DNA of 64,000 bases. Source: Promethearchaeota archaeon. GTDB lineage: Archaea > Asgardarchaeota > Lokiarchaeia > Sigyniarchaeales > SOKP01. Location of the stretch: the NCBI GenBank assembly GCA_048940925.1, contig JBHLOC010000022.1, forward strand, positions 19,442-83,441, written 5' to 3'. Shown here piece after piece: positions 7,844 through 21,952 of this stretch (the stretch's first letter is position 1; each line of letters begins with the position of its first letter). A model generated the notes under the pieces. It did no database searches and was not told the origin of the DNA. It saw nothing but the letters and a program-made list of their open reading frames with translations. Both the position numbers and the translations under genes were made by a program.

Positions 7844-8374
7844 GTGAGTTTTCGAAATATGGTTAGCGAACATACAACTGACCAAGAATATACTAAAGAA
7901 AAAGGGCATATCAAAATAGACTGGGGAAGACAAGGAGGAGTTATTGCAGCTTATATAGTTCTTCTCTTAGGTTATTATGGAATAATTGCAAATACAATGA
8001 TGTTTGATGAATATGGTCACTGGATACCTTTCACTGAAATGGATAGGACCATCCTCTTTTGGACATATACTACTTATTTACATAATTTCTTTTTACCTGC
8101 ACTTTTATTGTTTTTTGTATGTTTTATATTAACATATAAAGAAGATATTCCCCACTATGGAATTAAAGCTTCATTATGGGTAGTACCACTCATCATCGCT
8201 GAAGGATTCATCTTCTATACTGTGATGTTTGGCTTCACATCTGAACCTACATATCTCAAATTTGGTCGCATTGAAGGGTACCTTGATATCATTATTTTAT
8301 TCGGATTGGCGCTTTCTGGGGCAATAAGTGGTATGAAACTAAAACAGTATATTGAACAAAGAAGAGAAGTCTAA
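7844..8374 (+). CDS. hypothetical membrane protein (about 4 TM)
   Basis: Four hydrophobic segments in a 176-aa ORF; alternative ATG at 7859. Confidence 0.7.
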   Translation: MSFRNMVSEHTTDQEYTKEKGHIKIDWGRQGGVIAAYIVLLLGYYGIIANTMMFDEYGHWIPFTEMDRTILFWTYTTYLHNFFLPALLLFFVCFILTYKEDIPHYGIKASLWVVPLIIAEGFIFYTVMFGFTSEPTYLKFGRIEGYLDIIILFGLALSGAISGMKLKQYIEQRREV

Positions 8375-8592: not shown

Positions 8593-11025
8593 TTAACTGA
8601 GCTTTTTCTTTCTCATCATTGCATAAATAATACCAATCATCGATACCGCTGAGATTGTCAATGTAATAATCAATGGAGATGCTGGAATTAGAGGTGGTTT
8701 TTCTGGAAGTCCAACATATTTTATTAACTGAAAAGTTGGTAATTCAACTTCATAATAGAAGGCAGGCTGTCCGTCTCTATTATTCATTAAGAATGTCTCC
8801 CAATCTTTCCATAAAACTGCTCCACCTTTTAGTTGATAGGCGTAGATATATGGATACAATTCATTACATAATTTATTAGCCATTTTACTTACCATTTCGT
8901 ATTTATGGAATGATGTTGACACAAACATTTCCAATATCCAGCGAGTAATATTTTCATCAAAACAGAATACACGATTATAAGCAGGATAAATCGGATCCCT
9001 TGGTGTCATATAATAAGCTTGAATCCAACCCTCTGGAATCGTCCTAGGTATGTATAGATACGAAATATACGCATGAGCTGAAAAAATCGAATGTGTACCA
9101 TCAAAAGTGTCACTCCAATAGTAACGGAGTGTATCATAAACAAGTCCTGTCACTTTATTTTTCCCAGTTTCAACTCCTTCGCTAAAACCCACTCCAATAT
9201 TCTTACAAGCCTCCTCAAAAACATTCTTTATATCTTCCACACTATCATCCCAGTACAAATTAAGAACAAAAATGGGATCAGTCTCAGCAACCTGTTGCCA
9301 ATCAGCATCCGTGCTAGCGGAAGTTAAACCTCTCTCAGCGCATCGTTGACTAAAATTATAATTGAATGCCCCTGGTGTTTTTGTATAATTATCCTCTTCG
9401 GTTGTAAGTAAAAGCTCTCGTGCATAGTTAAGATTAAAATCAGCCATTGGCACACTCGCATTATAAAAAATGTTTCCGCGGTATACTATGTTTCCAGGTC
9501 GAACAGCGCGACCATCTAACACAGTATTAATCATTTTATCATAATCAAATGCATAATTCAGTGCTTTACGCAGTGCTCGAGGAACCCCTGCACAAGGTTC
9601 TTTATCAGAATAGAAGCTGTATGAAGCGCGTCTATACGAATCATAGCCTAACATGGGATCAGCCCAATATGATTCATTGATGCAATTCAATGCAATAAGA
9701 ATAGCATAATTTGTAGGATAACCTTCTATATACTCTATATTCTTATTCGCCATAACTGCATCATAATCTATTGGTGTATTAAAAGTATCAAAAGCACAAT
9801 CTACTGCATGAGTCAAAACTCCAGTATTCAATGCATCTAAACCTACTGAACCTATAGGAAATCTGATAATCTCGAGTCTATCAATATCAAACCAACCGTC
9901 TTCTTCAAGAGCAGTTTTATTCCAATAATCTTCAAACTTTACCATATAACCCCCCATAGCAGTAGCTGATTCAGAATACGATACATACTTGTAGGGACCT
10001 GTACCAATACAATGATCAACGATTGTAGGATTCTTTGGATGTCGAATATACGAGGGACCTACACCGTATTCATCGTTTTTGTAACCATAAATTCCTCTCC
10101 CCGTATAATTTTTATAATAAGCGGCATATGAAATTTTTTGTGGTGTCCAAAGACCACCTACTCCTCCATAGGTATTCCAACGATTAAAAATAACATCAAT
10201 CTTTCCTCCTGATTTCTTATTTTCAGTTATTTTTACTTCTTTGATAATTGGATACCTGTCATACATTGCATAATGGATTGCACTACCGCCTTTCCATCCA
10301 CCCCAAGGGTCAGGATTTCTAACAACTCCATTTTCATCAGCAGTGACTCCGGGGTATTTTGTATCTTTCCCAATTATGTAGCCCGCATACCATGAAGGAT
10401 CTGGTGTAGAGGGGCCATCTACTCCATCTTCATCGAGAGTTGGTGCAGCATATTCGGATATATTATAATCTTTACTTTGTGACATCCACCAATCATCAAC
10501 CGAATCCCAAAGTGAGGTATACCCTGACATAGAATAGCCTGTACCTTCACCGGTTAAATTACCTGTGATCAGATATAATCGATCGATGTTCCACTTAAAT
10601 ACAGTAGCATTCCAATCAGAGCCATCATGGAATTTCACCCCTTCTCTAAGCGTAAAACTTATTACTCTTCTTCCACCGGAATTATTAAATCCATAAAGAT
10701 TTTCTTCCACCGGTCGCCACGTTGTCTCCCAATCAGTAACAAGGATACCTTTCCACTCCTCCTCTCTTGTTTTATTTCCAATACCTCCGTCGTATGCTGC
10801 GTTTAATCCATAAGGATACTCACAAGCTATTGGAAAGAAATGAGTGAATATGACGCCTCCTACGGATATTGCAGGGTCCCAATTATCTGGACCTGCGGCG
10901 GATACGCCATATCTAAAAATTTTTATTTCCTCTTCTTTTTGAGCTTTAGCTATAGTAGGAAGAAAAGGTAATATCATAGAACTCAATAATAGAACAGACA
11001 CTAAAATCTTTGAAAATTTTTTCAT
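8593..11025 (-). CDS. ABC transporter substrate-binding protein, family 5 (OppA/DppA-like), C-terminally anchored
   Basis: Signal peptide, FTLREGVKFHDGS, IGTGPYK, LRKALNYAFD, C-terminal TM plus basic tail; divergent from oppBCDF. Confidence 0.88.
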   Translation of the reverse strand: MKKFSKILVSVLLLSSMILPFLPTIAKAQKEEEIKIFRYGVSAAGPDNWDPAISVGGVIFTHFFPIACEYPYGLNAAYDGGIGNKTREEEWKGILVTDWETTWRPVEENLYGFNNSGGRRVISFTLREGVKFHDGSDWNATVFKWNIDRLYLITGNLTGEGTGYSMSGYTSLWDSVDDWWMSQSKDYNISEYAAPTLDEDGVDGPSTPDPSWYAGYIIGKDTKYPGVTADENGVVRNPDPWGGWKGGSAIHYAMYDRYPIIKEVKITENKKSGGKIDVIFNRWNTYGGVGGLWTPQKISYAAYYKNYTGRGIYGYKNDEYGVGPSYIRHPKNPTIVDHCIGTGPYKYVSYSESATAMGGYMVKFEDYWNKTALEEDGWFDIDRLEIIRFPIGSVGLDALNTGVLTHAVDCAFDTFNTPIDYDAVMANKNIEYIEGYPTNYAILIALNCINESYWADPMLGYDSYRRASYSFYSDKEPCAGVPRALRKALNYAFDYDKMINTVLDGRAVRPGNIVYRGNIFYNASVPMADFNLNYARELLLTTEEDNYTKTPGAFNYNFSQRCAERGLTSASTDADWQQVAETDPIFVLNLYWDDSVEDIKNVFEEACKNIGVGFSEGVETGKNKVTGLVYDTLRYYWSDTFDGTHSIFSAHAYISYLYIPRTIPEGWIQAYYMTPRDPIYPAYNRVFCFDENITRWILEMFVSTSFHKYEMVSKMANKLCNELYPYIYAYQLKGGAVLWKDWETFLMNNRDGQPAFYYEVELPTFQLIKYVGLPEKPPLIPASPLIITLTISAVSMIGIIYAMMRKKKLS

Positions 11026-11493
11026 ATTTTTCTTCTCGTTAGTTCTAATTTAAAATTATAATTTTTTTTTTTGATCATTCTACCTTAGCAAAAAAATTCT
11101 TGGTAGAATATAATATAAAATTACATCAACAACATATTTAAATATTATAACAATTTCGACAGAAAAAATGTGATTTCTGAAAAAAATGTTAATAATAAAG
11201 AGAAAAAGACAAATTTTAATAATTTCTTAACTTAACTTGATTTTTTTTCTCTTCATATGGTGAATACAGGGAATAATAAATCCGGAGGAAACATTTGGGA
11301 AAATATCTAAACAAGATTCCAGGATAAGAAAGAATTCTTCAAGAAATCCAATATATTACATGAAATGAACTGAAATACACCCATAAGATCTCGTTGTTTC
11401 CTTAAATATTCAGATATTTAGAAATTATTCTTATTTCTAAATGAGAGATTAAATAAAGAAAAAAAAATTTGGATTTTATGAATTCAAAATAAA

Positions 11494-11740
11494 TTACCCA
11501 AGTTTATTCTTTCTTATCATTGCGTAAATTATGTCAATTATCGATACCGCCGAGACTGTTAATGTAATAATTAGTGGTGATCTTGGAATTAGAGGTTCTC
11601 CTTTTGAGAGTCCTACATATCTTAGGAAATACGGAGATATAAGACCCCAGTAGCCAACTGACCTATTTGCTCTATCTTTTACCCAAAATGTTTCCCATTC
11701 TTTCCATAGGCATTCCCCACCTTTTGCTTGATAAATAAAT
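11494..11740 (-). pseudogene. 3' remnant of a paralogous family-5 substrate-binding protein gene
   Basis: Translates FIYQAKGGECLWKEWETF...YVGLSKGEPLIPRSPLIITLTVSAVSIIDIIYAMIRKNKLG*, colinear with the C-terminus of 8593..11025; no start codon and an in-frame stop just upstream. Confidence 0.85.
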
Positions 11741-11914
11741 CGTAATTATTAAATAAGGTTAAGTTTTTTTTATAACCATACTTAGCAATTATAAAATAAT
11801 AAATAATCAGAAAATATAAACAAGAAATAGAGATACCAATAAAATTACAAAATCTCTTGATTTTTATGTAAATTATATTATATATTTAAAAATCCTATTA
11901 TATATGAAAGTGGT

Positions 11915-12985
11915 GTGGAAATGGCTCGTCAAGCTCGTAACATGATAAAGTACATTATTAAACGGATATTAATCATGTTTCCCGTTTTAATAGCAGTATT
12001 AACATTTACATGGCTTTTATCTCATATGATGGCAGTCAATCCTTATCTAAACAAAATAGGAGGTAGTTTGGAACCGGATTTATATGAACGAGTATTACGA
12101 GAAAGTGGGTGGTATGATCCTTGGTATGTAAAACTTGGTATTTACCTTAGAGATTTTTTCACTGGAAACTGGGGTGAAAGTTATGTCGTGCTCCCAGGAG
12201 AAAAAATAATAAATATAATTGCTCAAATCTTTCCTAAAACAATTGAATTAATGATATTTTCAATCATTATCGTTCCTATTATTGCTATAAAACTAGGTGT
12301 TACTTCTGCAAGACATAAGGATAAACCAAAAGATACTTTAATTCGAGGTGCTGCAATTCTAGGAGCAGGTTTCCCAGTATTTTATATTGCTGTCTTATTA
12401 CAATTGTTTATTAGGCTCTCATTAAGAGATTTTACTGGAGGGGGTATTAGTATTGAGGTGTTATACTCAAATAACCCCTCATTAACACCACCAGTTCCTT
12501 CAGGGGGTGTTGGTACAGGATTTAGAACTATTGATAGTGTCTTATATAATCACCAAGTATACTTGTGGGATACACTTATTCATTTGATCGTTCCTGTAAT
12601 GTGTATGATTTTCGTATCTTTATCTAATGTAACCAGGCAGACACGATCAAGCATGTTAGATGTTTTAGATCAAGATTATGTCAGAACAGCACGAGCAAAG
12701 GGAGTTGCAGAATCAGATGTTATCAATAAACATGCTCTTCGGAATGCTATTCTCCCTACAAGCCATTTAGTTATTCAAGGAACTGCTCTATCACTTTTAG
12801 GATCTCTCTTCGTAGAAGTCACATTCAATTATACTGGTTTTGGATATTACATGATAATGTCGATTTATGGTGGTGATTATTTAGTAATAAACGGACTTCT
12901 TGTTTTTTCATGCATAATTATAATTTCAGGTACACTTATAGCTGATGTTGCGTATACGATTATCGACCCTAGAATTATGTATTAA
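11915..12985 (+). CDS. oppB: oligopeptide/dipeptide ABC permease (OppB/DppB)
   Basis: YIIKRIL, TRSSMLDVLDQDYVRTARAKG, HALRNA, DPRI; likely start ATG 11942. Confidence 0.92.
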   Translation: MEMARQARNMIKYIIKRILIMFPVLIAVLTFTWLLSHMMAVNPYLNKIGGSLEPDLYERVLRESGWYDPWYVKLGIYLRDFFTGNWGESYVVLPGEKIINIIAQIFPKTIELMIFSIIIVPIIAIKLGVTSARHKDKPKDTLIRGAAILGAGFPVFYIAVLLQLFIRLSLRDFTGGGISIEVLYSNNPSLTPPVPSGGVGTGFRTIDSVLYNHQVYLWDTLIHLIVPVMCMIFVSLSNVTRQTRSSMLDVLDQDYVRTARAKGVAESDVINKHALRNAILPTSHLVIQGTALSLLGSLFVEVTFNYTGFGYYMIMSIYGGDYLVINGLLVFSCIIIISGTLIADVAYTIIDPRIMY

Positions 12986-13008: not shown

Positions 13009-14001
13009 ATGGAACAAATTTATATTGAAGAATTAAAAGAAGAAAAAATTCTTTCAGAATATAAAAAAAATAAATTTATTAGATATCTAAAATTCTATTT
13101 AATTCCTGGTTGGCGTGATCCAGAATTTAGTGCTGAAGAGTATGAAATTGGAAAAATTAAGTCAAAAAGGAGATTATTTAGACGCCTTATCACGCCTTTA
13201 ACAATTGTGGGAATGATTATGATTATGTTTATCGCTATTTTAGGCGTTTATGCTCCTTGGTTAACACAATTTACGATAGAGAATGTTTCTAAGCCTTTTT
13301 TTCCTAATGAGGCACCATATTCTCCACCATCAGCAGCACATCCATTAGGTACTACAAAATATGGGTATGACGTTCTTGCAAGGGTGATCTGGGGGGCAAG
13401 AACTGCACTTACTGCAGCAGCTCTTCCTGTCTTAATTTCTGTAGCAGGAGGTTTAGCATTAGGTACAATTTCCGCCTATTTTGGTGGAAAAGTAGATTAT
13501 CTTATTATGCGTTTTTGTGATTTTTGGTTTTCATTTCCATGGTTGATTCTTGTCATAATAATTTCACCTATGATAGGACAAGATTTATATAATCTTCTAC
13601 TCCTCTATGGTCTTCTTTATATACCATCTAGCACTAGGTGGGTGAGAGCTTTAGTTTTGCAGGTAAAACAGAACTTGTATGTTCAAGCAGCAATTACTGG
13701 TGGTGCAAATAAATTTAAAGTTATGTTTAAGCATGTTTTGCCTAACGCGATATCACCCCTTATAATTGGCTTTTTTGGATCGATGGCTATCGTAGTTTTA
13801 GGTTTTTCAAGTATTGCGTTTTTAGGACTGGGAGATGAAAGCTTTGCAGATTGGGGTACTGATATTAATTATGCAAGAGGACAGCAGTTTGCTTATTGGG
13901 CAGTACTTTGGCCTGGACTTTTTATAGCAATTACAGCAGTTGGATTTATGCTCATAGGGGATGGATTAAGGGATGCGTTAGATCCTAGGCTGCATATATA
14001 A
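13009..14001 (+). CDS. oppC: oligopeptide/dipeptide ABC permease (OppC/DppC)
   Basis: HPLGT..G.DVLARVIWGAR, HVLPN, GDGLRDALDPR. Confidence 0.92.
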   Translation: MEQIYIEELKEEKILSEYKKNKFIRYLKFYLIPGWRDPEFSAEEYEIGKIKSKRRLFRRLITPLTIVGMIMIMFIAILGVYAPWLTQFTIENVSKPFFPNEAPYSPPSAAHPLGTTKYGYDVLARVIWGARTALTAAALPVLISVAGGLALGTISAYFGGKVDYLIMRFCDFWFSFPWLILVIIISPMIGQDLYNLLLLYGLLYIPSSTRWVRALVLQVKQNLYVQAAITGGANKFKVMFKHVLPNAISPLIIGFFGSMAIVVLGFSSIAFLGLGDESFADWGTDINYARGQQFAYWAVLWPGLFIAITAVGFMLIGDGLRDALDPRLHI

Positions 14002-14100: not shown

Positions 14101-17067
14101 TTGTATTTGATTTTGTTTTTTATAATTAATTTTACCTTTAAAGAAGATAAAAAAGTATTAAACGCTTATAGACGAAGTACATTAGAGACTTGTTTAATTA
14201 TTTTGGGTATAATTATTGGTATTCGATTTATATTTGAAATTTTTCAATATTGGAGTTTAATTATTCAATGGCTTAATATGGATCAATTATATTTTGCTAT
14301 AATGGTAACACTTTATTTTTTTCTTTATAAAAAGTTATTAAAGAGATTTGGAATTTCAAGTTTTTCAAATGAGTCTAGTCTCAAATACCATAATTTTAAT
14401 AAGGTTATTATTATTTTCATGGGGATTTCATGGATATTTGCCGCAATATTTTTTTCCATAATGATTCTTAATATTCCAGTTCAGGGTATTGGAGTATTTG
14501 AACTCTATAAGATATTTTGGAATACTGATGAACCTCCTAATATTTTTAACTTAAGTCTATTCTGGACTGCAGTGGTACTTTTCATTGACCTACTTTTAAC
14601 TAATTTAATTAATAGAGCTTTATCAAATGAGAAACGTATTGCGAAAAAAGTCCTTAGAAACTCGATGCTTATGAGTGCATTGATTACATATGGAATTTGG
14701 ATTATCCAACTATTAGTATTTGAAGTGTATTTGAATAAATGGCTTGGTTTTGAGTTGCTTATTCAAGATATTCGTGTATTAATTATAGTTGTTTCAGGAT
14801 TATATATCATATTCTTTTTTAGTTCTCTCAAAACTAAATTTTTACCAGAATTAAGCGAAATGAGTTCAAAGAAAGTCCAAAAGCTATTAGAATTAGAAGT
14901 AGAAACGAAACATGCTAACGTAATTACAACAGAATTAACATTAGAAAACCAAGATTCGACTCTCGATTCTGAAGTTACCGAATTTCGACCACCAGAAGCA
15001 ATTTCTTTTAAAAATTATACATATCTTTTAAGAAAATTCGCCAAAATTCGTTATTTAGATGAAGAAACTTCAACGAATAATATATTTAATAGAAAGAAAA
15101 AAGTCGCAATAATCTTGTGGAGTGTTACATTAGGTATTCTAGCGGTTATTATTTCTTTAATATTATTTTTTTCTGATCTTATTTTTCAAGTATTATTTCT
15201 AAGTTATCTATGCGCTTTATTTTTAGTAGGAGGAGATATTAGCCTTATTTTTATTTTTAATAGAATGAATCCTATTAATAAACGGGCTCCCAAAAAATTA
15301 ATTCAAAACACAATTCTTTATGGGGGATTATTTACATTTTGGACATGGATTATACCATTTTTTATCATTTATATGTATCTTTTTATATGGATCAATGAAG
15401 CTATTATCTTAAACATTACATATATTACTCTTCTTTCGATTTTGATATTTTATTTGGGAATTAGAATTTTAAGATGGTATGGAGTAGCTGTGAAAGTATG
15501 GGGCACACCAATAAGAAGAGCGGTTAATATTAATTTGGTTTGGCTTATCGTAAATTTACCGTTGAGAATTTATTATTTATTTTATTACGGTGGAGTATTC
15601 ACCATAGGTGAAAATCTGCCTTTTAGAATCGTTTATTTTTTTTACATTGGGGAACTTATCATAACAGCAATTAACATTTTTATTGGTACGATTTTAATAG
15701 CGAGATCTTATAAAAGAAAATTAATAGATTCATTAAAGTTTGCTATTCCGGTTCAGATTATATTATTTGTATTGATATTAGTCTTAACTCACATATTAGG
15801 TTTCCTTCAATCTCTTATTATATCATACCATTTCAATCTTCAAGATGCTCGTATTCCCTTACTTGTTGCAACAGGAATATATATAATATCAGTTTTCACT
15901 TCTCTAAGGATAAAAACTTTACCACAATCATCTGAAAAAATTAAGGAAAAATTCAGAACAATCCTCCAAACTACTGAAGAAGATCAAGTCCAAGTTATGG
16001 GTATTGGGAACAATGTAATTTTAGATGTTAAAGATCTTACAACTTATTTTTATACAGAAGAGGGAATTGTTAAAGCAGTAGAAGGCGTCTCATTCAAAAT
16101 ATATCAAGGCGAAACTCTTGGCCTTGTAGGTGAGACAGGATGTGGAAAATCTGTAACCGCCTTATCTATCCTCCGATTAGTAAGACCTCCAGGTGAAATT
16201 AAAAGTGGGAAAGTTATATTTGATGGGGAGGAATTACATACAAAAACAGAGCAAGAATTTTTAAAATATCGAGGAAACAAAATTACAATGATTTTTCAAG
16301 ATCCGCTAAATTCGTTAAATCCTGTATTTAAAATAGGTGATCAAATTTCAGAAGTATATCGGCTCCATATGGAAGATGAATTACTAATAGAAGCAGCCAA
16401 AAAGAATACAAGTATTTATGATATTGCCCGAAAATGGAGCCAAAGAATGCTAAAAGATTTGAATATACCTACACCGAGAGTAATCTTTGACAGATACCCT
16501 CATGAACTAAGCGGAGGAATGCGTCAAAGAGTCCAAATTGCAATGGCTCTTGCCTGTAGCCCTAAATTATTAATTGCAGATGAACCAACTACTGCACTAG
16601 ATGTAACAGTTCAAAATCAGATTTTAAAATTAATGAAAGAGTTAAGAAAAAAGTATAACACTTCAATCCTATTTATTACCCATGATTTAGGAATTATTTC
16701 AAAAATGTGTGATCGAGTTGCTGTAATGTATAGTGGGGTTATAGTTGAATATGGTGATATAATGAAATTGTTTAAAACACCATATCATCCTTATACAAAG
16801 GGACTTATAGCATCTGTGCCAGTTGTGGGAAAAAAAAGAGAACGACTTGAGATAATACCAGGAATGGTTCCTAATTTAATATATCCGCCCTCAGGGTGTA
16901 GATTTCATCCACGTTGTCAATATTGTTTTGAACCATGTGATTCAAAGATACCGAAGAAAATAGAAATAGAACCAAATTATTTTGTCGCATGTCATTTGTA
17001 CGATCCTGAATATAAAGAATTAGCACAGAATTCTATAGTAAAAGTAGAAGAATTGCTAATAGAATAA
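14101..17067 (+). CDS. oppD: OppD/DppD-type ABC ATPase fused to a roughly 635-aa N-terminal multi-pass membrane domain
   Basis: GETGCGKS, LSGGMRQR, ADEPT, HPYT and Cys-rich tail from about nt 16010; many hydrophobic helices upstream; frame is open back to 14002. Confidence 0.88.
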   Translation: MYLILFFIINFTFKEDKKVLNAYRRSTLETCLIILGIIIGIRFIFEIFQYWSLIIQWLNMDQLYFAIMVTLYFFLYKKLLKRFGISSFSNESSLKYHNFNKVIIIFMGISWIFAAIFFSIMILNIPVQGIGVFELYKIFWNTDEPPNIFNLSLFWTAVVLFIDLLLTNLINRALSNEKRIAKKVLRNSMLMSALITYGIWIIQLLVFEVYLNKWLGFELLIQDIRVLIIVVSGLYIIFFFSSLKTKFLPELSEMSSKKVQKLLELEVETKHANVITTELTLENQDSTLDSEVTEFRPPEAISFKNYTYLLRKFAKIRYLDEETSTNNIFNRKKKVAIILWSVTLGILAVIISLILFFSDLIFQVLFLSYLCALFLVGGDISLIFIFNRMNPINKRAPKKLIQNTILYGGLFTFWTWIIPFFIIYMYLFIWINEAIILNITYITLLSILIFYLGIRILRWYGVAVKVWGTPIRRAVNINLVWLIVNLPLRIYYLFYYGGVFTIGENLPFRIVYFFYIGELIITAINIFIGTILIARSYKRKLIDSLKFAIPVQIILFVLILVLTHILGFLQSLIISYHFNLQDARIPLLVATGIYIISVFTSLRIKTLPQSSEKIKEKFRTILQTTEEDQVQVMGIGNNVILDVKDLTTYFYTEEGIVKAVEGVSFKIYQGETLGLVGETGCGKSVTALSILRLVRPPGEIKSGKVIFDGEELHTKTEQEFLKYRGNKITMIFQDPLNSLNPVFKIGDQISEVYRLHMEDELLIEAAKKNTSIYDIARKWSQRMLKDLNIPTPRVIFDRYPHELSGGMRQRVQIAMALACSPKLLIADEPTTALDVTVQNQILKLMKELRKKYNTSILFITHDLGIISKMCDRVAVMYSGVIVEYGDIMKLFKTPYHPYTKGLIASVPVVGKKRERLEIIPGMVPNLIYPPSGCRFHPRCQYCFEPCDSKIPKKIEIEPNYFVACHLYDPEYKELAQNSIVKVEELLIE

Positions 17068-17126
17068 AGATGAATATTTGAAAACCAAATTAAAAAGATT
17101 TTAAAAATCATAAAAAAGCGATAAAA

Positions 17127-18890
17127 ATGATTTTTCCCGGATTTACAATCACAAGTTTTGTATTAGAAGGGGTGCTCTTAGTATTAATCTCAATTATTGG
17201 ATTTTTCTTTTTTAGGTGGTATTCAAGAGAGAAAGGATGGGAGTATTCTTTTATGAATGCTTTTTTTATAATTGGAATATGGTTTGTTATTGAATTCTGT
17301 TTAGGGGTATTAGTTCCATATTTATTCAACGTATCTTTCTTAACGGAATCTCTGATTTCAAATATAAGCATTATCAACATCATGATAATAGGAGTAAACA
17401 TCTTTATTGGACTCATTATTTTTGTAAAGTTCATTAAAAAACCACTAAAAGATTCAATAATTTTCACTGTTGTTGTCCAAGGGTTAATATTTGGAATAGC
17501 AACTATTATCAGAATCTTATTGGGGGTGTTTATAACTATGATTACTACTGATAATGAGGATATTTCTGCGTCGGGATCCTTATTCTTCATGATTATAATG
17601 ATATTGTTTGGCATAACTGTTTTTTATGTGAATTGGGGGGATAAAATACAGTTTGTAAAATATAGGAATATCATTATACTTATTTCTTTTATACCAGAAC
17701 TAATTTATTTACAAAATCAATTTGACGTACAGGGTGACGCATTCATACGTCAATTTAGCATAAACATAATGTGGACTATTTTAGTTTTGATAATTTCTAC
17801 AACCATAGTTAAACAAGTTTCATATAGAACAATTTCTCTTAAGGAATTCAAAATTTTACCGGTTCTTGAAAAAGGTATAGAATTACTTAAAGTAAAAGAT
17901 TTAAAAGTCTATTATCCGCTTTATGGAGGAATACTTAAAAGACAGTTTGGATCTGTTAAAGCTGTTGATGGGATCTCTTTTACTATAAGAACGGGAGAGA
18001 CTGTAGGATTAGTAGGGGAAAGCGGTTGTGGAAAAACTACAGTTGCATTATCAATTTTAGGATTGGTGCCAAAAGAATCAGGTGAAGTTGAATTTCATAA
18101 TAATACCCTCCTTGGTGAACTAACAAGAGAAATGAGGAGAAAAATACAATTTGTATTTCAAGATCCTGATGCATCCTTGAATCCGCGAATGAAAATTGTT
18201 GATATAATCGCAGAACCCCTCAAAAATTTGTTGGGCGTTTCTGATAAAACTGAAATCAGGAAACGAGTTTTAAAATTATTAGATGAAGTGTCTTTAAAAC
18301 GTGAGCATATGGATCGTTATCCTCATGAATTTTCAGGGGGTCAAAAACAAAGAATTGTTATAGCACGAGCACTTGCTAGTAATCCCGAGTTAATTATATT
18401 AGATGAGCCTACTTCCGCTTTAGATGTATCAGTTCAAGCTCAAATTCTAAACTTACTAAAAGATTTGCAAGCTACTTATGGATATGGTTTTATGTTTATA
18501 ACTCACAATTTAGCTGTCGTTAATCATATTGCTGATAGGATCGCAGTCATGTATCTTGGAAAATTTGTTGAAGTTGGCAATACAGATCAAATATTTTCAA
18601 ATCCTTCACATCCCTATACTCAAGCACTTTTAGAGTCAAGAACAGAACTTGATCCTACTAATAAAGAAATTAGGTTCGTTATTAAAGGAGAAGTTCCAAG
18701 TCCAATAGCACCTCCTCCAGGATGTTCATTTAATCCTCGTTGTATTTCAGAGGCCAGAACAAGTGATTGTATGCGAAAGGCACCTCATAAAATGGAAATT
18801 GAAGAGGGACATTATATCTGGTGCGTTAATCCTCCCATACCTATGCAGTCTAAGGTTACAGAATCTAAAGAGAGACTATCTCTCGAATAA
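17127..18890 (+). CDS. oppF: OppF/DppF-type ABC ATPase fused to a roughly 250-aa N-terminal membrane domain
   Basis: GESGCGKT, FSGGQKQR, LDEPT and HPYT from about nt 17880; about 7 hydrophobic helices upstream. Confidence 0.88.
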   Translation: MIFPGFTITSFVLEGVLLVLISIIGFFFFRWYSREKGWEYSFMNAFFIIGIWFVIEFCLGVLVPYLFNVSFLTESLISNISIINIMIIGVNIFIGLIIFVKFIKKPLKDSIIFTVVVQGLIFGIATIIRILLGVFITMITTDNEDISASGSLFFMIIMILFGITVFYVNWGDKIQFVKYRNIIILISFIPELIYLQNQFDVQGDAFIRQFSINIMWTILVLIISTTIVKQVSYRTISLKEFKILPVLEKGIELLKVKDLKVYYPLYGGILKRQFGSVKAVDGISFTIRTGETVGLVGESGCGKTTVALSILGLVPKESGEVEFHNNTLLGELTREMRRKIQFVFQDPDASLNPRMKIVDIIAEPLKNLLGVSDKTEIRKRVLKLLDEVSLKREHMDRYPHEFSGGQKQRIVIARALASNPELIILDEPTSALDVSVQAQILNLLKDLQATYGYGFMFITHNLAVVNHIADRIAVMYLGKFVEVGNTDQIFSNPSHPYTQALLESRTELDPTNKEIRFVIKGEVPSPIAPPPGCSFNPRCISEARTSDCMRKAPHKMEIEEGHYIWCVNPPIPMQSKVTESKERLSLE

Positions 18891-19099: not shown

Positions 19100-21952
19100 A
19101 TGGAAGTATTCTTAAAACGGGCAGAAAGACCTTTTAAAGAAAGAATTGGTGAGGAAAAGACATTGTCCCTTTTCGAAAATATAAAAAAAGCAACAAATGA
19201 AATTCCTACTAAATTTAGAAGAGTAATTGGCTCAGATATACCGAAATATCTTTTTAATTTTTCTCGAGAGGTTGAAGAACTATCACCAGAAAATATAGAA
19301 GGAGTTCTAGCCCATGTTTTGATATTTGCGAAATCTCTTAAAGATCTTATTAATAAAGATAGAACCCAAATAACCCAAATTTTAATTAATAGAAGTGGTA
19401 ACAATATGCGTAACCTTCTAGATTTATTAGACAAATTCGCGGAAAAAGCAAAGCAAGGAGATATCATTAATGACGAACTCAATTTTGAAGATATTTTAAC
19501 ATTTGTTGTAGGAGATAAGACAATAATTACAGATCTTAATGAAATAGAATTATTTCTTAAACGTGCTGAAGGAAATTTTTCAGATAAAATTGGTAAGGAA
19601 GAATCTCATCATTATATAGAAAAAATTGCAGAAAAATTGAAAAAAATAGATAATAGTCACAAAGATTACCTCAGCTCAGATATCTCAAAAATTTTATTCA
19701 CTTTTTCACAGAGTATTGATAAAATTTCTACAGATAATTTAAAGAAAATCCTCCATCAGGTAGTATGTTTTACCAACTCGCTTTCTGATTTAGGAAATAA
19801 AACCAAAGATCAAATTGACCAAGAGATAAGGAAAAGGAGTAAAAATCAAGTTCATTCTATAATAGATCTTTGTAAAGCATTAATAGACGCTGCAAACGAA
19901 AATAGAATAATTAAATTATGTGAAACTCTTGATGAAATCCTTATACAGCTATATGGGGAAGAACAAAAACGAATACAATTTACTGACGTTGAAGCTTTTC
20001 TAAAACGAGCTGAAAAGAAGTATGCTATGATATTAGGAGAAGATATGATTCACTTGTTAATGGATGAATTATTGGAGGCTATAAATCAAATCCCAGAACA
20101 ACATAGGGAATATCTTGGTTCTGATCTTGCAAAGTTCCTATTTAAATTCTCAGAAACCGCATCTTTTCACGAACCAGAAAGGATTGAATTAGTATTTAAT
20201 GGAGCTATTATGTTTGCTAAATCTCTAGAAGAGCTAAGCGATCTAAATAATGCGGAAATAAATCAATTTATAATTAATAGATCAAATCATCAAGTTCGGA
20301 GTCTTTTTGAGTTATATAAAGCCTTCTTAGAAAAGATTAAGATTCGTATGCCATTATCTATAGAACCAACATTTGATGAAATTCTCAACCATACTTTAGG
20401 TAGATATAGTGGTCCAAAAGTAATAGAAAAAGGAGGCTTAATCCATGATTTAATGGCAGATTATCATGAAGAAATTCCAATTTCAAAAGAACATGCAAAC
20501 TGGGCTAAAGCGTTATCTGAGATAATCCCAAGATTTCTTGAGATCCTCTCCAATGCGGAAGGTGACCGAATTTTAGATCTTCTTTGGGAGAATAAGTTTC
20601 CAGAGAATCAAGTTATTGATCAATATCAAGAAAAGATTGCGGAGATTCCAAGAGAAAAAGAGAAATTATTTATGTTTAGACTAATGAATATGTTAACTAA
20701 CCAAATTTTAATTGATGATGAAAAAGATAAAGCATTAACTGGAGCATTAGCTTTTAGGATCCTTGGTACCGTTTTTGTTGAGATATATGGTGGACGAAAT
20801 ACTCAAATTAGAGCAATTAGGCTTAGTAGTCTATTAAAAGACAGAAAGGTTTCAAATTATGAAAAAAAGCAGGGTATCGATGACCATATAAACAGGATAC
20901 TTGAAGAGGATCTTAAAGCCATCCAACAAAAAACAATGACAATTAATACAATAATTCCAATTATAACAAAAAAAGGATATTTTATAAAAACATATGATAT
21001 TGTTACAAAAGATTTTCCAGAACTAATACTTAAATTAATCACTTATCGTGAAGAAGAACGTTTAAAAGATATTGGTGCTGACTATAAAAAATCAAGTTTT
21101 GCAGGAGAATTAATACCGCTTGTAAACGAATTTCTGCAAAAACTGGATTTAGCTAATAGATTTTATAAAAAGTATTTTGAAGAACTTAATAAGATTGCAT
21201 TTGATGCACAACAGAATATGCTAATAATCAGAAAATTTTTTAAATTATTAGTTGAGTTAAGGGAAAACTTAGATACCATTGAATTCTATGATTATAAAAT
21301 TGCTAATACAGAACATTCATTATATATCTTGTTACTGAAATATTTATACACTCCTTTATCAGAAGTTTTTGAAACTACAAGAATTATTCTTGATGAACAG
21401 GAGTACCAAAAAAAAATTATGAAACTCGATAAATATCTTAGTAAACAAAAACTGGAGCAACTTCAACTTGATATTAAATTCACAGAACAAAAAATTAGAG
21501 AGTATGAAAATTTTAAGGATTTTGATGCATATCAAAAAATTATGAATTTAACAAAATTTCTTAATAGAGACAAGAATGAAATTAAGTTTTTCGAAATTTT
21601 GTTTAAGCTACTAGATAAATCAGAAAAAATACATGTAATTTTAAAATCAAGATTTGAATTTTCAAAAACACTTTTAAAGTATTCAAATTCTTTGAAAAAA
21701 GTGCATTCAAGCCTTCCAGCAGCATTATCTGAAAATTTGGCTAATTTAAATGAATTTGATCAAGAAATTGATAAAATTATTAGCCAATTAAAGGAAAAAA
21801 GTCTTTCTGGTATACTCTCACCTTTTGAATTTAGAGAAAAAAATGAATCTGCTGAAATGTCGAAGAAAGAATTACTAAATCTATATTCGAATGAGGACTT
21901 CACCCTTCATATTAAGGCTATAGGAGAAATATCAGAAGTTACCCATTTTTAA
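19100..21952 (+). CDS. hypothetical alpha-helical protein with three 148-aa N-terminal tandem repeats
   Basis: 950-aa ORF; ExFLKRAE recurs at nt 19103, 19547 and 19991. Confidence 0.8.
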   Translation: MEVFLKRAERPFKERIGEEKTLSLFENIKKATNEIPTKFRRVIGSDIPKYLFNFSREVEELSPENIEGVLAHVLIFAKSLKDLINKDRTQITQILINRSGNNMRNLLDLLDKFAEKAKQGDIINDELNFEDILTFVVGDKTIITDLNEIELFLKRAEGNFSDKIGKEESHHYIEKIAEKLKKIDNSHKDYLSSDISKILFTFSQSIDKISTDNLKKILHQVVCFTNSLSDLGNKTKDQIDQEIRKRSKNQVHSIIDLCKALIDAANENRIIKLCETLDEILIQLYGEEQKRIQFTDVEAFLKRAEKKYAMILGEDMIHLLMDELLEAINQIPEQHREYLGSDLAKFLFKFSETASFHEPERIELVFNGAIMFAKSLEELSDLNNAEINQFIINRSNHQVRSLFELYKAFLEKIKIRMPLSIEPTFDEILNHTLGRYSGPKVIEKGGLIHDLMADYHEEIPISKEHANWAKALSEIIPRFLEILSNAEGDRILDLLWENKFPENQVIDQYQEKIAEIPREKEKLFMFRLMNMLTNQILIDDEKDKALTGALAFRILGTVFVEIYGGRNTQIRAIRLSSLLKDRKVSNYEKKQGIDDHINRILEEDLKAIQQKTMTINTIIPIITKKGYFIKTYDIVTKDFPELILKLITYREEERLKDIGADYKKSSFAGELIPLVNEFLQKLDLANRFYKKYFEELNKIAFDAQQNMLIIRKFFKLLVELRENLDTIEFYDYKIANTEHSLYILLLKYLYTPLSEVFETTRIILDEQEYQKKIMKLDKYLSKQKLEQLQLDIKFTEQKIREYENFKDFDAYQKIMNLTKFLNRDKNEIKFFEILFKLLDKSEKIHVILKSRFEFSKTLLKYSNSLKKVHSSLPAALSENLANLNEFDQEIDKIISQLKEKSLSGILSPFEFREKNESAEMSKKELLNLYSNEDFTLHIKAIGEISEVTHF
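19103..20400 (+). repeat. three diverged intragenic 444-nt (148-aa) repeats
   Basis: Each unit has ExFLKRAE...SD..K.LF.FS...F..SL.[DE]L...RS......DL/EL...[DE][DE]IL....G. Confidence 0.85.

Follow-up and report, generated by a model that had tools for sequence, protein, structure and literature searches.

We have analysed a window of 64,000 nucleotides (the whole stretch under study, positions 19,442 to 83,441 of contig JBHLOC010000022.1, assembly GCA_048940925.1) from a Promethearchaeota archaeon, which encodes a peptide-type ATP-binding cassette (ABC) importer whose two ATPases are both preceded by long arrays of membrane helices. The region holds four co-directional genes on the forward strand, namely oppB, oppC, a 988-codon frame for the OppD-type ATPase and a 587-codon frame for the OppF-type ATPase. 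The OppB-type permease (356 amino acids, 11915..12985) and the OppC-type permease (330 amino acids, 13009..14001) both match BPD_transp_1 (E 1e-32 and 2e-27, respectively), the latter with a weak match to OppC_N in addition, so that both permeases are intact, as an earlier note made from the sequence of this window had described them. The gene of a family-5 substrate-binding protein of 810 amino acids lies divergently on the reverse strand (8593..11025; SBP_bac_5, E 1e-22), and a small polytopic membrane protein is encoded next to it on the forward strand (7844..8374). With a family-5 binding protein, two BPD_transp_1 permeases and two ATPases carrying ABC_tran and oligo_HPY domains, the set has the composition of the PepT family (TC 3.A.1.5), and the window operon, from an Asgard archaeon labelled Promethearchaeota or Lokiarchaeota, encodes a type I ABC importer of this family (Opp/Dpp type). 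Its substrate could be peptides or oligosaccharides, and according to work cited in PMC11284389 sugars are also imported by archaeal members of this family.

OppD and OppF are normally soluble proteins of about 330 amino acids. In the window, the OppD gene (14101-17067, forward strand) is a single open frame of 988 codons with its ATPase at residues 640-966 (ABC_tran and oligo_HPY, OppD/DppD-like by Pfam and NCBIfam), and the OppF gene (17127-18890, forward strand) is a single open frame of 587 codons with an OppF/DppF-like ATPase at residues 252-567, assigned in the same way. Walker A, signature, Walker B, H-loop, HPY and Cys-tail motifs are all found in both proteins, and the frames together with the Pfam and NCBIfam matches agree with the claim of the earlier note that about 635 residues of helices in OppD and about 250 in OppF precede intact ATPases. 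Judging from the homologues, translation of OppD may start at TTG 14113 instead of 14101, because a homologue of 81% identity starts there; the public gene call, which runs for 882 amino acids from an internal ATG, is identical over its 882 residues and misses the first 106.

The N-terminal part of OppD begins with a six-helix core membrane domain (residues 1-245, 14101..14835), in which N171, E177, W200, Q203, E208, Y210, Q222, D223 and R225 are invariant and which ends in a 'tail' helix starting QDIRVL (221-250). This is followed by a hydrophilic cytoplasmic linker (246-330, 14836..15090) with 13 K+R and 15 D+E residues and low values of the predicted local distance difference test (pLDDT), by three helices repeating part of the first domain (331-430, 15091..15390), by a four-helix module that is shared with OppF (431-576, 15391..15828; RWY...W...NIFIG...YKRK..DS..F..VQ; hhalign and alignment to the OppF module), modelled by AlphaFold2 (AF2) with pLDDT 75-89, and by a second 'tail' helix (LQDARIPLL..., 577-602) with the linker to the ATPase (577-640, 15829..16020). 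The ATPase with its oligo_HPY domain and Cys tail closes the protein (16021..17067). The internal duplication is evident from a profile alignment of residues 104-211 to 335-427 (hhalign 97.8%, E 1e-12), and the repetition of the 'tail' helix from a BLASTP match of residues 221-270 to 580-629 (38% identity, E 2e-8). As estimated from the lysine and arginine content of each loop across alignments, with helix boundaries taken from AF2, the N-terminal part has 14 helices, and the N-terminus and the ATPase both lie inside; across homologues, loops with about 4-6 positive charges take turns with loops that have about 0-1.7.

The N-terminal part of OppF is shorter and starts with the shared four-helix module (residues 1-140, 17127..17546), delimited by hhalign, alignment and the AF2 model. 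Residues 141-252 (17547..17882) comprise a three-helix core (141-233, AF2 pLDDT about 90), which contains a cytoplasmic NWGDKIQF loop, and then an amphipathic linker helix that leads into the ATPase with its oligo_HPY domain and Cys tail (17883..18890). The loop is near-invariant, and W170, K173, Q175 and P190 are invariant in 16 sequences. Counts of lysine and arginine in the loops across homologues give OppF 7 helices, an N-terminus on the outer side and an ATPase on the inner side, and the AF2 model of the N-terminal domain is good (pLDDT 80.7, predicted template modelling score (pTM) 0.73).

To place these proteins among their relatives we have used 42 loci from named Asgard genome assemblies, which were collected with the small neighbouring membrane protein as bait and annotated by script; extensions were counted in complete genes only, namely 31 OppD and 25 OppF genes. 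All 31 OppD proteins carry N-terminal extensions of 212-723 residues, which fall into 23 short (212-330 residues) and 8 long ones (631-723 residues), and the six-helix core is matched in every one of them, and another protein with this core is P0043, of 642 amino acids. Extensions of 111-291 residues are likewise present in 25/25 OppF proteins; minimal forms of about 430 amino acids keep only the three-helix core, in which the loop reads SWDPRSQL or NWDDRSQL. OppB, OppC and a family-5 binding protein always accompany the fused ATPases in the surveyed loci. Gene order is also the same in a syntenic locus of a different metagenome (L001), whose OppD has 997 and whose OppF has 590 amino acids, and a locus of a paralogous type (L002) encodes proteins of 647 and 568 amino acids. 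A search with the N-terminal part of OppD retrieved about 35 clusters of proteins of about 1000 amino acids, 38-81% identical in this part and all with the ATPase; the named ones are all from Asgard metagenome-assembled genomes labelled Promethearchaeota/Lokiarchaeota, Thorarchaeota or Hodarchaeales. The architecture is thus conserved across Asgard archaea.

That separate genes were joined by assembly or frame errors, or that the true starts lie at the ATPases, is extremely improbable. The public call of OppD from an internal ATG does leave some uncertainty about start sites; against an artefact, however, stand the recurrence of the fusions in every complete gene, from metagenome-assembled genomes of many separate studies, the approximately 35 protein clusters that show the OppD fusion, and the conserved junction sequence. 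The frames are also much too long for chance openness, as in DNA of 27-28% GC the probability that the N-terminal frame stays open by chance is 1e-24 for OppD and 6e-10 for OppF. Since the extensions recur in 31/31 OppD and 25/25 OppF proteins across loci, the fusions are not artefacts, and the separate genes that the earlier note had named as grounds for withdrawing its proposal were encountered in none of these orthologous loci.

The module common to both ATPases, which the earlier note had pointed out, is a bundle of four helices and about 125 residues. Profile-profile alignment confirms it (OppD 447-583 to OppF 19-149, hhalign 97.7%, E 1.7e-12), whereas a control alignment of the first half of OppD to OppF, in which both profiles are likewise rich in membrane helices, gave no match (E 0.15). 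Moreover, when a hidden Markov model (HMM) was built from the OppF N-terminus and run over 1.8 billion representative proteins, it yielded 95 matches, D-type proteins among them. This search, of the kind that the note had proposed, found copies of the module not only on OppD and OppF but also free-standing and fused to an amino-acid ABC permease. The free-standing proteins are complete, with about 140 amino acids, and one of them (P0062) sits inside its contig. In P0084 the module is fused N-terminally to a polar-amino-acid ABC permease, whose operon also encodes an ordinary ATPase and a binding protein of the SBP_bac_3 type. Among 301 sampled genomes of the phylum the module occurs in 36, of which 34 belong to the window's own family (68 genomes) and one to another family, and it was found there in free-standing, OppF-fused, OppD-fused and permease-fused form, the last as frames of 350-378 amino acids in six genomes. 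The free-standing copies are without a recurring ABC neighbourhood, their neighbours being a kinase-like protein, a tetratricopeptide repeat protein, fumarase, ferredoxins and a flavoprotein. Within the ATPases the module is optional, as it can be inserted elsewhere (P0075) or doubled (P0047). Long OppD proteins pair with minimal OppF proteins, and short OppD proteins with module-bearing OppF proteins, which indicates that the modules of the two ATPases need not pair with each other. The constants of the family are the six-helix core on OppD and the three-helix core on OppF, and the four-helix module is a mobile add-on. The genome of the window also has one free-standing module of 127 amino acids (L010:1495-1878, contig C82), which adjoins a polytopic membrane protein of more than 460 amino acids without an assigned family.

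We have compared the extra domains with known families at the level of both sequence and fold. Pfam searches at E up to 1 with residues 1-640 of OppD and 1-250 of OppF returned only chance-level matches (DUF2070, Ycf9 and DUF7672); no permease profile or EAA-type domain was found in these parts and no BPD_transp_1 match, in line with the observation of the earlier note that permease motifs do not appear there. Sequence profiles of the Protein Data Bank (PDB) gave no match at E up to 1 for the OppD domain, and for the module only a chance-level match to PsbZ (E 0.18). Foldseek searches of the PDB with the OppD and OppF models returned nothing at E <= 0.001, and a wide VIA fold search gave generic helical-bundle matches only, the best being WbaP at Z 10-11, on a scale where helical bundles become informative at a Z of about 13. 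The N-terminal four-helix bundle of WbaP (8T53) superposes on the OppD module with Z 11.3 and a root-mean-square deviation of 3.0 over 125 residues, and on the OppF module with Z 10.2 and 2.9 over 121 residues; with 7-11% sequence identity and Z below the informative level, the likeness is limited to a common up-down four-helix arrangement. These models support the view that both modules are simple four-helix bundles. Claudins are absent from the best 50 fold matches of either model, and the module loops are short and without strands. No exporter fold was among the Foldseek or VIA matches of the extra domains, which were generic helical bundles.

The relation of the core machinery to solved PepT importers is, on the other hand, close. 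The importers available for comparison are OppABCD (8J5Q) and DppABCD (8WD9) of Mycobacterium tuberculosis and OppBCDF (8Z21) and DppBCDF (8Z1V) of Escherichia coli. The window system shares with them the family-5 binding protein, the pair of BPD_transp_1 permeases and the pair of ATPases that carry an oligo_HPY domain and a Cys tail. In their ATPase parts, OppD and OppF match the solved PepT ATPases at E 1e-81 to 1e-131, the closest solved chains to that of OppD being M. tuberculosis Rv1281c (8J5Q, E 1e-110) and E. coli OppD (8Z21). Yet the solved ATPases are soluble proteins of about 330 amino acids each, or are fused to each other in M. tuberculosis, whereas in the window they are preceded by 635 and 250 residues of helices, and the operon comes with a gene for an additional small membrane protein. 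A looser parallel, as an analogy only, is the N-terminal transmembrane domain 0 (TMD0) of TAP1/TAP2 and of the ABCC proteins SUR1 and MRP1, which is also an accessory bundle outside the translocation core. TMD0 serves assembly or partner binding. It precedes, however, an exporter-type core membrane domain, while in the window the domains stand before the ATPases of a type I importer, and neither Foldseek nor VIA found any sequence or fold relation between the two. A survey of Asgard transporters lists PepT systems and does not note the fusions (PMC7997004), and our search of the full-text literature found no description of the fusions or of the small protein. The extra domains match no known permease or fusion family by Pfam, NCBIfam, PDB sequences or fold; such a match was the other finding that, according to the earlier note, would have spoken against its proposal.

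The small polytopic membrane protein has 176 amino acids as listed; since its homologues have 171, its start is probably the ATG at 7865. It is without a match in Pfam, and in PDB sequences at E up to 1, and has more than 500 clusters of homologues, all annotated as 'hypothetical' and carrying Asgard labels only, the best 120 being at least 58% identical. Its gene lies directly upstream of oppB in 30 of the 42 loci and beside the binding-protein gene, as in the window, in 5; in a further 5 a contig end is nearby, hence no context is available, and in the remaining 2 (L052 and L030) it is apart from the transporter or has none nearby. Within the window's genome, homologues of the small protein accompany all three long PepT-type systems: one is encoded directly upstream of oppB in the system on contig C89 (hhalign 97.9%), and another about 2 kb upstream of the OppD gene of the system on contig C3. 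The ATPases of these two paralogous systems have no N-terminal helices, as judged from hmmsearch and their sequences. From this pattern of gene neighbourhoods, the small protein is probably a sixth subunit of the importer. As its homologues accompany paralogous systems whose ATPases lack N-terminal helices, it is probably an accessory subunit of PepT importers of Asgard archaea in general, and it is more likely to contact OppB and OppC than the ATPase add-ons. A complex prediction of the small protein with the first OppD membrane domain scored 0.00, which as to binding is evidence in neither direction. No remnant of the small gene was found in the spacer of 889 bp that separates oppB from the binding-protein gene. 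In locus L015, its usual position upstream of oppB is taken by a gene for a 489-residue sulfatase/phosphodiesterase-like protein (11092-12561, reverse strand; recognised by eye only), which hints that some of these importers may take up sugars and not peptides.

The same spacer harbours, on the reverse strand (11500..11739), a relic detected by tblastn that corresponds to the last 82 codons of a second binding-protein gene. It shares 56% identity (E 1.7e-23) with the intact binding protein over residues 728-809 of the latter, anchor helix included, and a related locus (L020) has two tandem binding-protein genes. The binding protein of the window has a signal peptide and, at its C-terminus, a hydrophobic anchor followed by RKKK; its NCBIfam matches to named binding proteins are far below the cut-offs. 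An ending of the form IPG[FY/SA]-helix-RKKK is conserved in the binding proteins of the window (8593-11025) and of loci L013, L014 and L020-L060, and far more so than the remainder of these proteins, which is 24-45% identical in related operons. This ending resembles the sorting domain Loki-CTERM (NCBIfam NF033507), which consists of a C-terminal motif, a helix and a basic cluster and to which the binding proteins of related operons score 15-16 bits (cut-off 19.9) and that of the window has no match. About 24 other large proteins of the window's genome pass the Loki-CTERM cut-off, so that such endings are general and not specific to the transporter. Archaeosortase/exosortase (PF09721) was not found in this genome, nor did our full-text literature search find a description of Loki-CTERM. 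No other protein of P. syntrophicum, an Asgard archaeon in culture, comes near a family-5 binding protein in abundance (PMC11284389).

With moderate confidence we propose that transport by the window importer would proceed through OppB and OppC, with the extra helices acting as anchors or scaffolds and the small protein as a subunit. The surface-anchored family-5 binding protein would supply the importer alongside two catalytically complete ATPases, and the substrate would pass the OppB/OppC channel driven by the OppD/OppF dimer, as in the solved relatives. The extra helices would surround the channel within the membrane as fixed anchors or scaffolds, keep the ATPases at its surface and make the assembly more stable or adjust it, a role comparable to that of TMD0 in TAP and in the ABCC proteins; the small membrane protein of about 171 residues would be one more subunit. 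For the extra domains, a peripheral accessory or anchoring role outside the translocation path is the most likely one. The proposal is favoured by the loop charges that place both ATPases in the cytoplasm, by the conserved polar residues in the OppD six-helix core and the OppF three-helix core, by the linkage of the small protein and by the absence of BPD_transp_1 matches from the extra domains. Several points weigh against it. The position and contacts of the extra helices are postulated, and the AF2 model of OppD is moderate (pLDDT 69.4, pTM 0.37). A mere anchor would not require residues as specific as E208, D223 and R225 of OppD, near the predicted outer face, or as the invariant WGDKIQ loop of OppF. 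In addition, the missing ABC neighbourhood of the free-standing copies indicates that the four-helix module has a function of its own.

Some of these features would also fit a regulatory role, in which the extra domains would detect a ligand from outside, a lipid or the state of the membrane and, by way of the short linkers to the ATPases, control the hydrolysis of ATP. The invariant polar residues of OppD at predicted membrane interfaces (E208, Y210, Q222, D223 and R225) and the position of the OppF WGDKIQ loop next to the ATPase linker point in this direction, and regulatory add-ons on importer ATPases are established, although those of MalK, MetN and ModC are soluble C-terminal domains. We nevertheless regard a sensor as unlikely, given that Foldseek and VIA recognised no ligand-binding fold and that the helices vary across orthologues from 6 to 14 on OppD and from 3 to 7 on OppF, which is unexpected for one defined sensor. 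It is quite improbable that the extra helices, possibly together with the small protein, serve to hold one or more copies of the binding protein beside the channel by its C-terminal anchor: the conserved IPG[FY]-helix-RKKK ending on a protein otherwise only 24-45% identical, and the abundance of the family-5 binding protein in P. syntrophicum (PMC11284389), would suit such docking, but the resemblance of the ending to a general sorting signal present on about 24 other proteins means that its conservation need not reflect the transporter, and the window's own binding protein does not reach the Loki-CTERM model. We consider it very unlikely that the membrane domains of OppD and OppF, with or without the small protein, form a pathway or enzyme of their own on the same ATPases, such as an exporter-like or lipid-handling unit. 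A membrane domain followed by an ATPase is the typical order of ABC exporters, the 21 extra helices outnumber the 12 of the channel, and conserved polar residues lie within the core helices; the two halves are, however, grossly asymmetric (14 to 7 helices, and 6 to 3 in the minimal forms), the ATPases are of the importer type with oligo_HPY and always occur with OppB, OppC and a binding protein, and fold searches returned no exporter-type membrane domain, only generic helical bundles below the informative level. A bolder reading, which we hold to be rather improbable, is that the OppD core, the OppF core and the small protein make up an Asgard-specific membrane machine that would couple the ATP cycle to a second task; it might, for example, handle the anchor (lipid or helix) of the very abundant binding protein, or act on the lipids of the membrane. 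One complex would in that case serve two functions, and the importer would not simply have passive anchors.

In the textbook view the ATPases of binding-protein-dependent ABC importers are soluble subunits. The system described here is genuine and conserved; it belongs to a known class of transporters and is apparently an undescribed variant of it, in which both ATPases are embedded in the membrane across a whole lineage and a probable sixth subunit is added. It brings to light three unnamed membrane protein families without a Pfam model or structure, whose conserved residues offer testable targets, together with a four-helix module that is mobile and has become joined to no fewer than three different components of ABC systems. 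The gene calls are also corrected, as the public ones truncate several genes of the system or leave them unnamed. Asgard archaea are the closest known relatives of eukaryotes. Their cultured members feed on amino acids and peptides, and in them no protein is more abundant than a family-5 binding protein (PMC11284389), so that transporters of this type may be central to Asgard physiology.

Insertions of another kind were noticed within the ATPases of the paralogous PepT systems of the same genome (C89:15657-17063, equivalent to L061:7658-9067; C89:14294-15625; C3:10552-13129). One OppF-like ATPase has about 100 extra residues with two hydrophobic helices between Walker A and the Q-loop; we have considered whether this insertion is the four-helix module and rejected the idea, no relation having been found. 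Both OppD-like proteins (C89 and C3) have a charged coiled-coil insertion of about 50 residues, and the OppF-like protein of C3 a basic insertion of about 60 residues.

Of the other features in the window, an antisense frame of 168 codons that overlaps the start of oppF (17108-17614, reverse strand) is probably no gene, and the palindrome TTAC-N4-GTAA occurs as a single site at chance level, distant from the operon. Between the operon and the gene of CTP synthase, the forward strand encodes a conserved helical protein of 950 amino acids (19100..21952) of no known family and without a Pfam match, which is 68-70% identical in L001 and L030; its membership in the transporter system is doubtful. 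It contains three internal repeats, each starting FLKRAE...IGEE. In L030 and L022 the synteny of the left flank is kept and the small gene runs straight into the gene of the 950-residue protein, with no transporter in between, which indicates that the operon was inserted or lost at this spot of the window.

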